From contig JAUNAM010000001.1 of NCBI GenBank assembly GCA_030527615.1, positions 25,244 through 89,243 of the forward strand: a stretch of 64,000 nucleotides of DNA, in the 5' to 3' direction. Both the position numbers and the translations under genes were made by a program. Of this stretch, positions 9,764-20,145 are shown piece by piece. The stretch comes from Clostridia bacterium. GTDB taxonomy: Bacteria; Bacillota; Clostridia; Oscillospirales; Acutalibacteraceae. Below the pieces are notes generated by a model. It saw only the letters and a program-made list of their open reading frames with translations. It was not told where the DNA came from and made no database searches. Each line of letters opens with the position of its first letter. Positions within the stretch are counted from its first letter, which is position 1.

Positions 9764-10183
9764 TTATCTTTCCTCCACTGTGATTTCAACAGTATTTTCA
9801 CTAAGCGGTTCTAAATTGGCATCTATTGCATAAGCCATTTTTAATCGACCGCCGCTTTCGTTTAAATTGCATTTAACCTCTTTGCCGTATATACCCAAAG
9901 TAAGTGAGCCTTGCGGTATGGCGTAAAGGCATTGATTACGCTCGCCCTCGGTAATGACAAGACGAGAATTAAGGTCGCCCCGTCGCTCTAAAATAACCGT
10001 TTTATCGCCTTTTACGGTGAGTTGTGTTTTGGTGTTAGAGCCTTCTACAGTTTGGTCGTCGCTGTAACTTAAAATATATTCGTCCTCAAACTGTCGCATA
10101 ACACCCTCGGTGGCAAGCTCTATAACCGCTTGCTCGTCATCTGCGCCTTGGGTGCCTTTGATTTTAATTAAAACCTTTTTCAT
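9764..10183 (-). CDS. DUF1934 (YwiB-like) beta-barrel protein
   Basis: 139 aa, located immediately upstream of argS as is usual for DUF1934 in Firmicutes. It overlaps the murI stop by 4 nt. Confidence 0.7.
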   Translation of the reverse strand: MKKVLIKIKGTQGADDEQAVIELATEGVMRQFEDEYILSYSDDQTVEGSNTKTQLTVKGDKTVILERRGDLNSRLVITEGERNQCLYAIPQGSLTLGIYGKEVKCNLNESGGRLKMAYAIDANLEPLSENTVEITVEER

Positions 10184-15550: not shown

Positions 15551-15632
15551 GGATTGCCACAACGCTAACGCGTTTCGCAATGACAACATTACTCGTCAGT
15601 CATTACGAGCCACGATAGTGGCGTGGTAATCC
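15551..15632. repeat. 82-bp composite of two head-to-head 34-nt hairpin modules (REP/BIME-like), copy upstream of the LRR gene
   Basis: GGATTGCCAC-aacgc-taac-gcgtt-TCGCAATGAC, a 14-nt linker, then GTCATTACGA-gccac-gata-gtggc-GTGGTAATCC. Same architecture as 19043-19124 but in the opposite orientation. Confidence 0.8.
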
Positions 15633-15823: not shown

Positions 15824-18800
15824 ATGAAAACAAAAAAATTATTGGCAATAATTTTAGCATTGGCTATTATAATCTGCACGCTGCCAATAGGTGCACTAAC
15901 AGCAGGTGCCGAAACTGCAACAAGCTATACCGGCAGTTGTGGTGAAAATTTAACATATTCATTTGATGAAGCAACTGGTACATTAACCATTACCGGCAGC
16001 GGTGATATGGCTGATTATGATTGGCGTGATGCCCCATGGTATTCATACCGTAGTTTGATTAAAGCGGTTGTTATATCTAACGGTGTAACAAGTATAGGCG
16101 ATAGGGCATTTAACGATTGCGATAGCCTTAATTCGATCACAATCCCCGACAGCGTAACAAGTATAGGTGATTATGCGTTTTATAAATGCACAAGCCTTAC
16201 CGAAATCACAATCCCCGACAGCGTAACAAGTATAGGCAGTTATGCGTTTGATGATAGCACAAGCCTTGAAACCGTAAATATAACCGACCTATCAGCTTGG
16301 TGTAATATAGATTTTGATGGTTATAGTTCAAACCCAATGTGTTGTGCTGATGACCTTTGTTTAAACGGTCAACCGATAACCGATTTAGTTATACCTAATG
16401 GTGTTACACAAATAAATGACAATGCATTTAACAATTGCGATAGCCTTAATTCAATCACAATCCCCGACAGTGTAACAAGTATAGGTGAGAGTGCGTTTTC
16501 TGGTTGCGATAGCCTTGCCGAAGTTACAATCGGCAACGGTGTAACAAGTATAGGCAGTTATGCGTTTTCTGGTTGCTATAGCCTTACCGAAATCACAATC
16601 CCCGACAGTGTAACAATTATAGGTTGGTATGCGTTTTCCGATTGTGATAGCCTTACCTCAATTACGATCCCCGACAGTGTAACAAGTATAAGTAGTTATG
16701 CGTTTCACGGTTGCACAAGCCTTACCGAAATTACAATTCCCAATAGTGTAACAAGTATAGGTGAGCGTGCGTTTTCTGATTGCAGTGGTTTGGAAAGTAT
16801 CGTTGTGCAAAGTGGTAATACGGTATATCGTTCTGAAGGTAATTGCCTTATAGAAACGGCAACTAAAACACTTATTTTCGGTTGCAAAAACAGCACAATA
16901 CCAAGTGATGGCAGCGTAACAAGCATAGGTAGTTATGCATTTGAAGGTTGCACAAGCCTTACCGAAATCACAATCCCCGATGGTGTTACTAGTATAGGTA
17001 GTTGTGCGTTTTATGGTACAGCCTATTACAATGATAGCAACAATTGGCAAAATGATGTTTTATACATAGGCAATCATTTAATAGATGCAAAAACTACAAT
17101 AAGCGATAGTTATGCTATAAAAGACGGCACAAAAACGATTGCAGATGGTGCGTTTTACTATTGCAAAATACTTACCTCAATCACAATCCCCGACGGCGTA
17201 ACAAGCATAGGTCATTATGCATTTTATAATTGCACAAGCCTTACTGAAATCATAATCCCATACGGTGTGACAAGAATAGGTGAGAGTGCGTTTGAGTATT
17301 GCACAAGTCTTAACGAAATCACAATCCCCGACAGTGTAACAAGTATAGGCGTGCGCGCGTTTTATCTTTGCACAAGCCTTAACTCAATCACAATCCCAGA
17401 CGGCGTAACAAGTATAGGCGATTATGCATTTGAAGATTGCACAAGCCTTACCGAAATCACAATCCCCGACAGCGTAACAAGCATAGGTAGAGAGGCGTTT
17501 TACGATTGCACAAGCCTTACCGAAATCACAATCCCTGACAGCGTAACAAGTATAGGTGAGTTTGCGTTTCGGAGTTGCACAAGCCTTACCGAAATCACAA
17601 TTCCTGACAGCGTAACAAGCATAGATGGTTATGCATTTTATAATACAGCATATTATAATGACGATAACAATTGGCAAAATGATATTTTATATATAAACAA
17701 TCATTTAATAGGTGCAAAAACTACAATAAGCGGCAATTATAGCATTAAAGACGGCACAAAAACGATTGCAAATTTTGCGTTTTACGATTGCACAAGCCTT
17801 GCCAAAGTTACAATCCCCGACAGCGCAACAAGCATAGGTATCGGTGCTTTTGGCAGTTGCACAAGCCTTACCTCAATCACAATCCCCGACAGTGTAACAA
17901 GCATAGGTGGCAGTGCGTTTCGGAGTTGCACAAGCCTTGCTGAGATCACAATCCCCGACAGTGTAACAACTATAGGTGAATGGGCGTTTTGCTATTGCAC
18001 AAGCCTCACCAAAATCACAATCCCCGATAGTGTAACAAGTATAGGCTACGATGCGTTTTCTTATTGCAATAACCTAACTCTTTGTGTTTACAAAGACTCT
18101 TACGCTCATCAATATGCCATAGAAAACGAAATACCATATACATTAATCGAAAAAATAACCGGCGAGTGGAAAAAACAAAACGACAGATGGTGGTACAGCT
18201 ACTCTGACGGCAGTTATGCCGTGGGTTGGCTTGAAATGGATGGCAAGCGCTACTGCTTTGATGATGCCGGTTGGATGCTTACCGGCTGGCAACAGCTTGG
18301 CGGCAAGTGGTATTATTTTAACGCTGACGGTGTAATGCAAAAGAATTGGCAAAAGATATCTAAAGTATGGTATTATCTTGATGATGACGGCACAATGAAA
18401 ACCGGTTGGCAAGAGATTGACGGTAGTTGGTATTACTTTAATGCAAGCGGCGCTATGCAAACAAATTGGGAAAAGGTCGGCAAAGTGTGGTACTATTTTG
18501 AGCCAAGCGGCGAAATGACCACCGATTGGCAAAAGATAAGCGGTACTTGGTACTATTTTAACCAAAACGGTGCTATGCAGACCGGCTGGGAGCAAATAGA
18601 AGAGATTTGGTATTACTTTGATAATAGCGGTGCTATGAAAACCGGTTGGTTAAAGACCGGCGGCAAATGGTATTACTTTAAATCAAGCGGTGCTATGAAA
18701 ACCGGTTGGTTAAAATCAGGCGGCGTATGGTACTACTTTGATAATAGCGGTAAAATGCTGGCTAACACATCAAAAACAATAGGTAATAAGGTATACCGTT

Positions 18801-18832
18801 TTAATGCAAGCGGTGCGTGCCTTAATCCGTAG
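15824..18832 (+). CDS. Secreted BspA-type leucine-rich-repeat protein with C-terminal cell-wall-binding (choline-binding-type) repeats
   Basis: Signal peptide MKTKKLLAIILALAIIICTLPIGALTAGA. More than 20 repeats of about 23 aa of the form ITIPDSVTSIGxxAFxxCTSLTE. About 11 repeats of the GWxxxxGxWYYFxxSGAMxT type at the C-terminus. Confidence 0.9.
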   Translation: MKTKKLLAIILALAIIICTLPIGALTAGAETATSYTGSCGENLTYSFDEATGTLTITGSGDMADYDWRDAPWYSYRSLIKAVVISNGVTSIGDRAFNDCDSLNSITIPDSVTSIGDYAFYKCTSLTEITIPDSVTSIGSYAFDDSTSLETVNITDLSAWCNIDFDGYSSNPMCCADDLCLNGQPITDLVIPNGVTQINDNAFNNCDSLNSITIPDSVTSIGESAFSGCDSLAEVTIGNGVTSIGSYAFSGCYSLTEITIPDSVTIIGWYAFSDCDSLTSITIPDSVTSISSYAFHGCTSLTEITIPNSVTSIGERAFSDCSGLESIVVQSGNTVYRSEGNCLIETATKTLIFGCKNSTIPSDGSVTSIGSYAFEGCTSLTEITIPDGVTSIGSCAFYGTAYYNDSNNWQNDVLYIGNHLIDAKTTISDSYAIKDGTKTIADGAFYYCKILTSITIPDGVTSIGHYAFYNCTSLTEIIIPYGVTRIGESAFEYCTSLNEITIPDSVTSIGVRAFYLCTSLNSITIPDGVTSIGDYAFEDCTSLTEITIPDSVTSIGREAFYDCTSLTEITIPDSVTSIGEFAFRSCTSLTEITIPDSVTSIDGYAFYNTAYYNDDNNWQNDILYINNHLIGAKTTISGNYSIKDGTKTIANFAFYDCTSLAKVTIPDSATSIGIGAFGSCTSLTSITIPDSVTSIGGSAFRSCTSLAEITIPDSVTTIGEWAFCYCTSLTKITIPDSVTSIGYDAFSYCNNLTLCVYKDSYAHQYAIENEIPYTLIEKITGEWKKQNDRWWYSYSDGSYAVGWLEMDGKRYCFDDAGWMLTGWQQLGGKWYYFNADGVMQKNWQKISKVWYYLDDDGTMKTGWQEIDGSWYYFNASGAMQTNWEKVGKVWYYFEPSGEMTTDWQKISGTWYYFNQNGAMQTGWEQIEEIWYYFDNSGAMKTGWLKTGGKWYYFKSSGAMKTGWLKSGGVWYYFDNSGKMLANTSKTIGNKVYRFNASGACLNP

Positions 18833-18834
18833 CA

Positions 18835-18866
18835 AAAAGTGGAGTTCGATTAGAACTCCACTTTTT
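18835..18866 (+). terminator. Rho-independent terminator of the LRR gene
   Basis: gtggagttc-gatta-gaactccac flanked by an A-run and a T5 run. Confidence 0.85.
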
Positions 18867-18867
18867 G

Positions 18868-18957
18868 AGTGATATTGCCTTACGGCAGTGATATTTGACT
18901 GACGTCAAGTGATATTGTGCTATCGCACAGTGATATTTTAAAGGCTTATGCCTTTAA
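18868..18957. repeat. Four AGTGATATT 9-mers alternating with four different short hairpins
   Basis: The 9-mers are at 18868, 18887, 18908 and 18929. The intervening palindromes are gcc-ttac-ggc, tgac-tgac-gtca, gtgc-tatc-gcac and ttaaaggc-ttat-gcctttaa. Confidence 0.85.
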
Positions 18958-18990
18958 AGTTTCGGTGTCGCGTTGCGACGGATATATAAA

Positions 18991-19011
18991 GTCGGCTTTG
19001 CCGACACATTA
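18991..19011. repeat. 21-bp direct repeat GTCGGCTTTGCCGACACATTA (left copy; right copy at 19646-19666)
   Basis: Two exact 21-bp copies bracket the 634-bp repeat-rich block. Each contains the hairpin gtcgg-ctttg-ccgac. Confidence 0.85.
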
Positions 19012-19132
19012 ATTATGCATTATGCATTGTGCATTAAAGAACGGATTACCACGAGGCAGCCGCCTCTCGTAATGACTGACGAAAAGTATTGTCATTGCGA
19101 AACACGATAGTGTTGTGGCAATCCGCCTCTTT
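19011..19132. repeat. About 120-bp repeat unit 1: heptamer run plus an 82-bp two-module composite (19043-19124) plus a GCCTCTT tail
   Basis: aattatgc attatgc attgtgc att, then GGATTACCAC-gaggc-agcc-gcctc-TCGTAATGAC, a 14-nt linker, then GTCATTGCGA-aacac-gata-gtgtt-GTGGCAATCC. Confidence 0.85.
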
Positions 19133-19194
19133 AATCTGTTATCTGCAAGCGTAGCGGTCTGATATCTGATTTGGTGTCGCGTTGCGACAGATGT

Positions 19195-19362
19195 AGGGTC
19201 TCTCTTTCCGTTAAAGCCGTTGGCTTTGCCACCTTTCTCGTCAGAGAAAGGCTGCCTCCCTCTGACGAGGGTGACTCCCCACAGTGTGGGGAGATGTCCG
19301 TAGGACAGAGGGGACGCGCTCCTGTCAGGAGGTGTCAGCGTTAGCTGACGGAGGGAGAGAGT
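19195..19362. other. Closed multi-hairpin domain: seven or eight consecutive short stem-loops enclosed by a purine/pyrimidine closing helix. Candidate structured RNA or DNA element
   Basis: Hairpins: aaagcc-gtt-ggcttt (19213-19227), cctttctc-gtca-gagaaagg (19232-19251), ccctc-tgac-gaggg (19258-19271), ctccccac-agt-gtggggag (19275-19293), tgtcc-gta-ggaca (19295-19307), ctcct-gtc-aggag (19319-19331) and gtcagc-gtta-gctgac (19334-19349). The flanks tctctctttcc (about 19199-19209) and ggagggagagag (19350-19361) can pair if G-U pairs are allowed. Confidence 0.45.
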
Positions 19363-19386
19363 TATTTAATGTGCAATCCGCCCCTT

Positions 19387-19630
19387 AATTATGCATTGTG
19401 CATTGTGAATTGTGCATTAAAGAACGGATTACTTCGTCACTACCGCTCCTCGTAATGACGATATAAAACGTCAGTCATTGCGAGCGAAGCGTGGCAATCC
19501 GCCTCTTAATTATGCATTGTGCATTGTGAATTGTGCATTAAAGAACGGATTACTTCGTCACTACCGTTCCTCGTAATGACGATATAAAACGTCAGTCACA
19601 GCACACCGCAGGCGTGGCAATCCGCCTCTT
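19387..19630. repeat. Two tandem repeat units of about 121-123 bp (units 2 and 3: 19387-19507 and 19508-19630)
   Basis: The copies are near-identical except in the second module. Unit 2 has GTCATTGCGA-gcgaagc-GTGGCAATCC and unit 3 has the degenerate GTCACAGCA-caccgcaggc-GTGGCAATCC. Each starts with aattatgcattgtgcattgtgaattgtgcatt. Confidence 0.9.
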
Positions 19631-19831
19631 GGTTTATTAATGTTCGTCGGCTTTGCCGACACATTATCTCAACTCTAAACTCTCAACTCTACTATCTAAA
19701 TCACAACATCTTGTGTGGTTGACATAATACTTTGCACAAGATAAATATTTTGCAAAAATTATTTGGTGCTATTGCACAAATTTAATTTTAAAACTTTGTG
19801 AAAATTATAAGAAATTTTTTTAAAAAAATGC

Positions 19832-19860: not shown

Positions 19861-20145
19861 CTTTAGGCACGCTGCGAAAATGCGGCGTAAATACATGCGT
19901 TGATGCAGGAGGTGGCTCGCTTTAAGCGAGGAAATTTCTGCGGAGTATGTCCGATTTTAAACCGGGCGAAAGAACTTGGAGACACTATTGGTTACTTGCG
20001 AAACCGACGGTGTCGCGACGATGCGAGTCGTTGCTCCGGAATTGCGTTAACCCCAGCAATTGCCGGTTTTATGTTGTGCTAAGTGGAAACACACGGCACG
20101 GTGTAAGTTTTGCCCGCCAACTAATTCAAGGAGGCGAAAGTTCAC
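19861..20145 (+). promoter_or_regulatory. Long GC-rich structured 5' leader of rpsJ, a probable S10-operon regulatory leader
   Basis: About 280 nt between the promoter and the rpsJ RBS (aaggaggcg), with many local stems such as gctcgc-tttaa-gcgagg and ccggcaattgc/gcaattgccgg. The small ORFs here lack an RBS. Confidence 0.45.

Follow-up and report, generated by a model that had tools for sequence, protein, structure and literature searches.

The 64,000-nt stretch of DNA analyzed here (hereafter, the window) comes from contig JAUNAM010000001.1 of the Clostridia bacterium assembly GCA_030527615.1 and carries short hairpin modules confined to two intergenic regions that flank the gene of a leucine-rich repeat (LRR) surface protein. 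The same motif occurs across bacterial phyla and brackets genes of the Ssn family of GIY-YIG nucleases, and the bracketed genes are homologous to ssnA of Neisseria. Therefore, the modules are with good probability members of a superfamily that comprises the CGTC-tagged repetitive extragenic palindromes (REPs) described in 2013 and the Ssn-related motifs (SRMs), such as the NTS repeats of Neisseria. They would be gene-less copies and likely substrates of an Ssn nuclease encoded elsewhere. The motif, its covariation, its association with genes, and the homology to Neisseria are results of this work; the biochemistry of Ssn and its effect on transformation are taken from the literature. In sum, an element of a known kind occurs here in a new host, and its stem is built in a way that the published motif does not cover.

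Structure and distribution of the hairpin module

The module is an oriented element that folds as a single-stranded DNA (ssDNA) hairpin. The 5' tag, (Y/A)GTC, is unpaired and is followed by the lower stem, ATTRC/GYAAT, of 5 bp. Above this stem, GA faces GTG or GAA in a purine-rich internal loop, which leads to an upper hairpin that varies freely and often contains d(GCGNAGC); directly 3' of the stem stands an invariant unpaired C. Two scans were made beyond the window, one of genomes (one genome per species, head-to-head core TCGTAATGAC-N8-24-GTCATTRCGA only) and one of viral contigs (slightly relaxed module pattern), and each yielded at least 120 loci. Among the matches listed, the pattern GTC-ATTRC-GA-(variable hairpin)-GNN-GYAAT-C is found in more than 15 bacterial phyla. 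The listed genome matches include Alpha-, Beta-, Gamma-, and Deltaproteobacteria, Helicobacter, Bacteroidia, Flavobacteriia, Ignavibacteria, Cyanobacteria, Melainabacteria, Brachyspira, Deferribacteres, Elusimicrobia, Planctomycetes, Verrucomicrobia, Chloroflexi, WOR-3, Hydrogenedentota, Cloacimonadota, and several Clostridia. The motif that the initial annotation had described from this one stretch is therefore widespread, related Clostridia metagenome-assembled genomes (MAGs) included; the family is not lineage-specific and is limited neither to this genome nor to Proteobacteria. In the Clostridia MAGs (Ruminococcus, Faecousia, Acutalibacteraceae, and others) the modules form arrays with the same ATTAC/ATTGC alternation as in the window, and a Ruminococcus array shares the AATCCG tail with the window modules.

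Base pairing is conserved in both tiers of the hairpin. At the 120 listed genome loci, which come from many phyla, the lower-stem pairings are ATTAC-GTAAT (101), ATTAC-GCAAT (27), ATTGC-GTAAT (4), and ATTGC-GCAAT (186), that is, the R and Y positions covary (Fisher p = 1e-51, a value that treats related copies as independent). The 3' halves are an unbiased sample, as the genome scan placed constraints on the 5' halves alone. In the window itself the lower stem is ATTGC/GCAAT or ATTAC/GTAAT and never mixed, exactly as initially described.

For the upper tier, 50 distinct 34-nt modules were compared with the two-tier structure, with 500 shuffles and slid registers as controls. Paired cells made up 89.8% of the total, compared with 73% in the shuffles and 21-58% in the slid registers. 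Cells changed on both sides numbered 84, against 23.6 in the shuffles, none of which (0/500) reached 84. Compensatory changes were seen at all five upper-stem pairs, and the 20-22 unpaired cells at two upper-stem positions correspond to a recurrent G.A/A.G tandem of the GGAGC...GCGAC subtype. Interior lengths vary from 7 to more than 40 nt across the family. Interiors with a Watson-Crick stem of at least 4 bp, paired from the outside in, account for 26% of 578 unique modules (0.4% when shuffled) and use 116 distinct arms. Among 132 seven-nucleotide apices, 85 are GCGNAGC and 15 are ACGNAGT. The former is a hyperstable DNA mini-hairpin and the latter is a compensatory change of its closing pair; the GCGAAGC that had been pointed out in one window module stands at 19484-19490. 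The earlier proposal of selection for pairing is borne out by the lower-stem covariation and by the upper-stem compensatory changes across many phyla, and the pattern of pairing across phyla and subtypes is unambiguous even though the copies are related.

The unpaired flanks are conserved as well. In 202 modules collected with unconstrained flanks, the tag bases are G in 191, T in 196, and C in 194 cases, the base directly 3' of the stem is C in 198, and the most frequent tags are TGTC (93) and CGTC (78). Both the GTC tag and the C after the stem are present in all seven intact modules of the window, with tags CGTC (two), TGTC (two), and AGTC (three). These conserved unpaired positions are the ones that proved experimentally critical in Ssn: binding requires the stem and the C after the palindrome, and cleavage requires the three bases before it (PMC11893778).

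Association with small GIY-YIG nuclease genes

In other genomes, modules of the window type stand next to genes of small GIY-YIG proteins. A profile was built from six small open reading frames (ORFs) that adjoin modules and show a GIY...YIG signature. It detected a GIY-YIG ORF in 14 of the 120 module-selected genome loci listed. At 16 loci with such an ORF, modules in most cases lie within about 60 nt of it, and in about half an inverted pair is located within 60 nt at both ends. The tails of the modules face the gene in loci L173, L151, L222, and L185, and the heads face it in L198, L149, and L184.

The association also holds in the reverse direction. At 80 metagenome loci picked by similarity to the GIY-YIG proteins alone, a GTC-tagged hairpin with a perfect stem occurs within 200 nt of the gene on its upstream side in 60 of 77 cases and on its downstream side in 62 of 74; at 50 of 71 loci both flanks have one. 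Such hairpins reach a density of 7.3 per kb close to the gene, compared with 0.96 per kb at distances of more than 500 nt. The lower stem at these loci is ATTGC in 143 of about 220 hairpins, and covarying alternatives are ATTCT, ATTCC, ACTGC, ATCCC, ATCGC, and ATGTT.

The encoded proteins consist of a single PF01541 domain and are 92-98 aa long (Pfam E-values 1.9e-15 to 2.8e-18). One module-associated protein is 48% identical to an ORF of N. gonorrhoeae (tblastn, 91% of the query, E = 5e-20) that is itself embedded among canonical NTS/dRS3 repeats. The Y-11-Y-47-E spacing of the module-associated proteins matches Y6, Y17, and E64 of the published SsnA, and in the N. gonorrhoeae ORF these residues stand at exactly those positions (6, 17, and 64). 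Based on this identity and on the matching residue positions, the proteins encoded between window-type modules belong to the Ssn family. No NCBIfam model matched them, a PDB sequence search gave only a weak UPF0213 match (3.5e-4), and the literature on YhbQ/UPF0213/COG2827 yielded nothing useful. The NTS-embedded homolog lies in locus L357 (N. gonorrhoeae NZ_CP119142.1), a 2.17-Mb "plasmid" in PLSDB that looks like a misfiled chromosome, and its start seems to be frameshifted, with the ATG and the GIY-YIG body in different frames.

SsnA of N. meningitidis is a 94-aa GIY-YIG protein (cd10448; Chenal et al., 2025, PMC11893778). It binds and cuts NTS (CGTCATTCCCGCGMAVGCGGGAATCYRG) solely as ssDNA and on one strand, a few nucleotides 5' of the motif, does not bind RNA, and reduces transformation by NTS-carrying DNA. 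Across phyla, ssn genes are flanked by SRMs, which are hairpin repeats of 20-50 nt, and the NTS-ssnA-NTS layout resembles an insertion sequence; in Neisseria, NTS repeats cluster near surface and virulence genes (PMC11893778). The published SRM search sequence, HGTCWYN(0-2)YYVSBRHN(0-5)WNVSBRGN(0-2)RNCYNB, matched the canonical Neisseria locus and gave no match within 900 nt of the first 16 GIY-YIG genes.

Other Ssn-family genes (L135, 650-1350; L084, 10350-11100; L255, L279, and L281) are bracketed by tagged hairpins of different types, namely GTCATTCTGA...AGAATC, GTCATGTTGA...AACATC, GTCATCCTGG...AGGATC, and the GC-rich CGTC-GCCCCGGA, none of which fits the published pattern. Judged by these repeats, the diversity of Ssn motifs is wider than the published SRM pattern captures.

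Organization of the modules in the window

The initial annotation had listed eight modules and the pattern GTCATTRCGA-N7-17-GTGGYAATCC. This pattern has five exact matches in the window and none in 100 shuffles of it. A covariance model, whose training alignment already contained six of the seven window modules that it detected, assigned to them E-values of 1e-12 to 5e-7. The next best hit in the 64 kb, at E = 0.08 (14.1 bits), is a weak candidate module GTCATTACCGAGGGCGAGCGTAATC at 9933-9958 on the reverse strand, inside a DUF1934 gene; it may be a chance match or an intragenic relic. Modules 5 and 7, with GAA in place of GTG, and the degenerate module 8 depart from the original description. 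The observation was thus real and was over-generalized from four clean copies.

The modules form four pairs, at 15551-15632, 19043-19124, 19426-19500, and 19547-19623, all of them head-to-head with a linker of exactly 14 nt. Each pair is a heterodimer of an ATTAC-type and an ATTGC-type module with the tail CCG. Dimer A includes module 1 on the reverse strand (15551-15584; ATTGC/GCAAT, upper stem AACGC-GTTA-GCGTT), an exact match that scores 49.3 bits with the covariance model and folds as DNA at -8.0 kcal/mol. It is followed by the linker AACATTACTCGTCA (15585-15598), whose CGTCA abuts the ATTAC-type module in the sequence, and by module 2 on the forward strand (15599-15632; ATTAC/GTAAT, upper stem GCCAC-GATA-GTGGC). 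Dimer B consists of module 3 on the reverse strand (19043-19076; ATTAC/GTAAT, upper stem GAGGC-GGCT-GCCTC), the linker TGACGAAAAGTATT read from the sequence at 19077-19090, and module 4 on the forward strand (19091-19124; ATTGC/GCAAT, upper stem AACAC-GATA-GTGTT). Modules 2 and 3 were recognized by the exact pattern, DNA folding, and the covariance model, and module 4 by the exact pattern and the covariance model.

Dimer B is an inverted copy of dimer A (arms of 85 nt, 81% complementary), and a compensatory change from G-C to A-T distinguishes module 4 from module 1. Folding energies as DNA are -6.4 to -8.0 kcal/mol for the four clean modules (z -1.8 to -2.5) and -25.4 and -23.3 kcal/mol for the 86-nt dimers (z -6.6 and -6.8), each of which forms a branched structure in which both apical hairpins are kept. 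No consistent target-site duplication of the kind that marks miniature inverted-repeat transposable elements (MITEs) was found at the dimers; the flanking AC...GT merely extend the palindrome, and a 21-nt direct hairpin repeat brackets the cluster at 19012-19645.

The other two pairs belong to two tandem units of 121 nt on the forward strand (19373-19614). The units (19373-19493 and 19494-19614) are 98% identical; in each, an AT-rich spacer (TTAATTATGCATTGTGCATTGTGAATTGTGCATTAAAGAAC) is combined with one module on the reverse strand, a linker, and one module on the forward strand. At the start of the first unit, the sequence and the repeat search reveal an orphan 3' half-module GTGCAATCC (19371-19379, forward strand). 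Module 5 (19426-19459, reverse strand, ATTAC/GTAAT, tag CGTC, 48.2 bits) belongs to the GA-rich two-tier subtype GA-G-GA-GC..GT-GA-C-GAA, which is common in the family (150 of 588 unique modules). It is joined by the linker GATATAAAACGTCA, seen in the sequence at 19460-19473, to module 6 (19474-19500, forward strand), a short form with the GCGAAGC mini-hairpin apex that matches the pattern exactly and scores 32.1 bits. In the second unit, module 7 (19547-19580, reverse strand) is the tandem-duplicate copy of module 5, also detected by the covariance model, and its linker (19581-19594) repeats the sequence at 19460-19473. Module 8 (19595-19623, forward strand) consists of GTCA, 15 unrelated nucleotides, and GTGGCAATCC; it was missed by the covariance model and does not fold as DNA (z = +0.56). 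Since these pairs result from a 121-nt tandem duplication, modules 5 and 7 and modules 6 and 8 are not independent, and the last two pairs represent one event. The two units match up to GTCA of the forward module (19477/19478 and 19598/19599), diverge completely for 13-15 nt, and then GTGGCAATCC resumes. Because identity is lost right after GTCA, the breakpoint lies at the boundary between the tag and the lower stem of the module.

Several general statements of the initial annotation apply to a part of the modules. Complementary upper stems were correctly described for modules 1-4 (AACGC/GCGTT, GCCAC/GTGGC, GAGGC/GCCTC, and AACAC/GTGTT), whereas the upper arms of modules 5 and 7 (GGAGC/GTGAC and GGAAC/GTGAC) are not Watson-Crick complementary. 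Two of the composites are 82 nt long, as had been stated for all, and the others are 75 and 77 nt long. The rule that modules always occur head-to-head with a 14-nt linker is valid for all four window pairs; elsewhere, in a set chosen on single modules only, tail-to-tail (35) and tandem (21) pairs outnumber head-to-head ones (2). The head-to-head linkers in other genomes range from 8 to 24 nt. Thus, the head-to-head arrangement with a 14-nt linker is a local habit of the window. Long tandem arrays in the same orientation occur in contigs L033 (2670-12783), L053, and L008, with 17 modules in 13 kb; their linkers are 10-23 nt long and pyrimidine-rich, and the layout differs from the window dimers.

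Genomic context and neighboring repeats

The gene bracketed by dimers A and B (15824-18832, forward strand) encodes a 1002-aa surface protein with BspA-type LRRs and choline-binding repeats (Pfam LRR_5, 5.6e-195; Choline_bind_3, 8e-55), and is a part of the context rather than a repeat. This gene, an S10-Clostridia leader at 19892-19969, and a SleB-like cortex hydrolase in the window identify the host as a spore-forming Clostridia-type Firmicute. Exact matches to Obg and YitT each led to a short same-strain contig; the Obg contig stops ahead of the repeat, and the YitT contig carries an identical dimer. The LRR protein and the long YitT ORF have no exact-protein record. Ten contigs with an identical S10 protein belong to other species. 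Their homology to the window starts only at 19801, and upstream they contain unrelated genes and no modules.

The spacer at 18.83-19.8 kb is a mosaic of at least five kinds of repeats and has no counterpart in the species with the identical S10 protein. The whole module cluster is bracketed by the 21-nt exact direct hairpin repeat GTCGGCTTTGCCGACACATTA at 18991-19011 and 19646-19666. Another hairpin repeat, GGTGTCGCGTTGCGACrGATrTA, occurs twice, at 18961-18986 and 19170-19195. Directly 3' of the LRR gene, a full-length, sub-threshold match to the Gut-1 RNA (RF01706) is located at 18848-18920 on the forward strand (37.4 bits against a gathering threshold of 50, E = 4e-6 locally). This Gut-1-like region is a series of short hairpins with GTGATATT after each of them, and the series extends to about 18945.

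A GC-rich block of about 170 nt (19197-19366, core 19266-19331) occupies the gap between modules 4 and 5. It folds at -90.6 kcal/mol on the forward strand (z -5.7) and -82.6 kcal/mol on the reverse strand (z -8.1) and has no Rfam match. Its 63-nt core of three hairpins (GGTGACTCCCCACAGTGTGGGGAGATGTCCGTAGGACAGAGGGGACGCGCTCCTGTCAGGAG) recurs in 24 IMG/VR contigs (L332-L355) at 88-98% identity and in at least three contexts, with compensatory changes in hairpins 2 and 3. Possibly, the block is an element in its own right, mobile or structured. In the phage-like contig L351 (4758-4820) the 63-nt element is found at the junction of a holin and an amidase (endolysin) gene. In L349 (12735-12787) it is located within the gene of a C-5 cytosine methylase, the N- and C-terminal parts of which are encoded in different frames. 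These two cases suggest an insertion or an intervening sequence.

Proposed mechanism and alternative explanations

The window copies are gene-less head-to-head ATTAC/ATTGC heterodimers in two mosaic intergenic regions that flank a surface LRR gene. Each time the DNA becomes single-stranded, be it by replication, repair, uptake, or transfer, one hairpin per strand of a dimer would be offered to Ssn. A cognate Ssn, presumably encoded elsewhere in the genome and acting in this organism, would nick in or beside the 14-nt linker of each dimer. The sites may then be hot spots for breakage, recombination, and ssDNA restriction, and probably for their own spread and duplication. Such nicking could also explain why duplication and mosaic structure are seen locally and why inverted dimers surround the LRR gene.

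Several facts weigh against the assignment to the superfamily and against this mechanism. No GIY-YIG gene or remnant is present within the 64-kb window, and no Ssn gene was found in ten Clostridia loci of 2-8 kb; modules 4 and 5 face each other tail-to-tail across 301 nt, the size of an ssn gene, and this gap contains no decayed ssn. Most Ssn homologs occur in Gram-negative bacteria (PMC11893778), and the characterized Ssn enzymes come from outside the sub-clade associated with window-type modules. The published SRM search sequence has no match in the window. The modules are also unlike the 8-9-bp stem and 4-5-nt loop of the 2013 CGTC families: the window stem starts with ATT/AAT and has 5 bp, a 2x3 internal loop, and then a variable second stem. 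The covariation counts are inflated by the kinship of the copies, and the p-values overstate their independence. Finally, neither the same-strain contigs nor the ten S10-matched contigs show a presence/absence polymorphism of modules that would indicate recent mobility.

The main rival, as far as the working of the modules in this genome is concerned, assigns them to the same family as inert copies: they would be the decaying remains of an earlier invasion or of DNA acquired horizontally, in a genome that no longer has a cognate Ssn, and would have no function at present. We regard this as possible but doubtful. The lack of ssn in 64 kb, the degenerate module and the orphan half, the small number of clustered copies, two pairs of which arose by plain tandem duplication, and the fact that 19% of genomes with more than 200 SRMs have no Ssn homolog (PMC11893778) all agree with decay. 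On the other side, perfect two-tier stems are retained in four modules, including the compensatory change between modules 1 and 4, and clean arrays are kept in related Clostridia MAGs. In another, unlikely alternative, the main role of the two inverted 85-nt dimers would be in recombination or inversion, by which the LRR gene would become a cassette that can move or flip. The dimers are indeed inverted copies (81% over 85 nt) around a 3-kb gene, the species with the identical S10 protein differ in the genes upstream of the S10 operon and carry no modules, and in Neisseria it is surface and virulence genes around which NTS cluster (PMC11893778). However, neither an alternative orientation nor an empty site was seen, the only other contigs found of the strain (6 kb and 1.6 kb) are identical, and a cassette would be a consequence of the repeats rather than another identity for them.

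The hairpins would fold as RNA too and stand between convergently readable genes, so that they could serve as terminators, mRNA stabilizers, or structured non-coding RNAs for their neighbors; E. coli REPs have secondary effects of the terminator and mRNA-stabilizer type. Such a role is very unlikely. The modules have no T-tract downstream, and the LRR gene is already followed by a separate perfect terminator hairpin at 18833-18867. The two modules of a pair lie on opposite strands, and any transcript would contain one sense and one antisense copy. The conserved flanks are strand-specific and unpaired, and the GCGNAGC apices are typical of DNA mini-hairpins. No Rfam family covers the modules, either at gathering thresholds or at E <= 10, the same motif accompanies unrelated genes in more than 15 phyla, and RNA is not bound by SsnA (PMC11893778). 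The initial annotation had likened the modules to REPs and to bacterial interspersed mosaic elements (BIMEs), implying dependence on a REP-associated tyrosine transposase (RAYT), in this case a Y1 HUH enzyme encoded elsewhere. The likeness is apt for the organization, which combines oriented hairpin repeats, alternating orientation, and intergenic mosaics. Mobilization by RAYT is, by contrast, extremely improbable and already largely refuted: the tag is (Y/A)GTC and not GTAG, and the gene bracketed elsewhere, in 16 module-selected and 80 protein-selected loci, encodes a small GIY-YIG nuclease and not a Y1 transposase. No RAYT was found next to CGTC-type REPs (Di Nocera et al., PMC3733652), and, in line with the initial remark that the window has no RAYT gene, none of the 18 window ORFs scanned against Pfam matched a Y1 transposase family. 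The family itself is CGTC/SRM with a GIY-YIG partner.

A broader version of the CGTC/SRM assignment, tentative and rather unlikely as a whole, is that the two-tier GTCATTRCGA...GYAATC hairpins form a major pan-bacterial class of Ssn substrates missed by the SRM pattern. They would be non-autonomous mobile elements copied via Ssn-made nicks in ssDNA, with a hypervariable yet always self-complementary apex written by nick-and-repair or by copying. If true, a GIY-YIG nuclease would drive a system akin to REPIN/RAYT, and this system would extend into Gram-positive gut bacteria.

Under the CGTC/SRM assignment, a puzzling repeat of a gut Firmicute is now placed in the recently characterized system of the Ssn ssDNA nuclease and its hairpins. 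The published pattern overlooks a large class of such motifs that spans phyla; SRMs are therefore underestimated, and the tallies of genomes "without" SRMs are off as well. The two-tier design, with a fixed tag, lower stem, and 3' C and a free apex, is a specification for probing the specificity of new Ssn enzymes, which are of interest as sequence-specific cutters of ssDNA. In this genome, the flanks of the LRR gene are likely hot spots of breakage and recombination.

Comparison with known systems

Some known elements were considered and set aside. CRISPR was rejected, as the spacers are identical or the arrays are tandem, with units of 37-54 nt. Integron attC sites, dif sites, and k-turn RNAs were rejected by inspection and general knowledge, their consensus sequences being unlike the modules. 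A literature search by sequence words such as GTCATTGCGAG returned primers only.

The closest relatives are the SRM/NTS repeats. Shared features are an oriented hairpin, the (H)GTC tag, a stem starting with AT, and a C directly after the stem; in other genomes modules of this type bracket small single-domain GIY-YIG genes on both sides, and the window copies cluster around a surface-protein gene. The differences are the two-tier stem (5 bp, GA/GNN internal loop, and variable upper hairpin) in place of a single 8-bp stem, and the host, a spore-forming Firmicute with no ssn gene in the window.

The CGTC-tagged REPs have a CGTC/TGTC tag (CCTC is tolerated), an AT-initiated stem, and a short tail near CCA; they form mostly head-to-head dimers, often heterodimers, and "apparently lack a dedicated transposase" (PMC3733652). 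Families CGTC-1 to -4, which include Neisseria dRS3 and Rickettsia RPE-4 and RPE-6, have stems of 8-9 bp and loops of 4-5 nt (PMC3733652). They were reported from Proteobacteria, Chlorobi, Bacteroidetes, Spirochaetes, and Thermotogae (Di Nocera, De Gregorio, and Rocco, 2013, PMC3733652). The window modules share the CGTC/TGTC tag, the AT-initiated stem, a short C-rich tail, the intergenic location, and the absence of an adjacent transposase, as well as the head-to-head heterodimers in all four pairs, an arrangement that varies elsewhere. They differ in stem architecture, in their occurrence in Firmicutes, which are absent from the phyla of 2013, and in the three AGTC tags.

REP/BIME and REPIN-RAYT systems also combine short ssDNA hairpins with an unpaired tag, alternating arrays, and one small nuclease gene bracketed by repeats. 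In contrast, RAYT systems use a GTAG tag and an HUH/Y1 enzyme of the IS200/IS605 family, and REP sequences are largely lineage-specific, whereas the core of the window type is the same across phyla. The Neisseria intergenic mosaic elements (NIMEs) are similar in being intergenic mosaics, with tagged hairpins (dRS3) placed between repeat units of other kinds; the corresponding units in the window are the AT-rich spacers, the two further hairpin repeats, and the GC-rich block. The repeat units and the host are different, and NIMEs are known from Neisseria only. The d(GCGAAGC)/d(GCGNAGC) hyperstable DNA mini-hairpin, reportedly described by Hirao and co-workers, is a structural motif and not a genetic element; in the modules, as in module 6, it caps a longer recognition hairpin.

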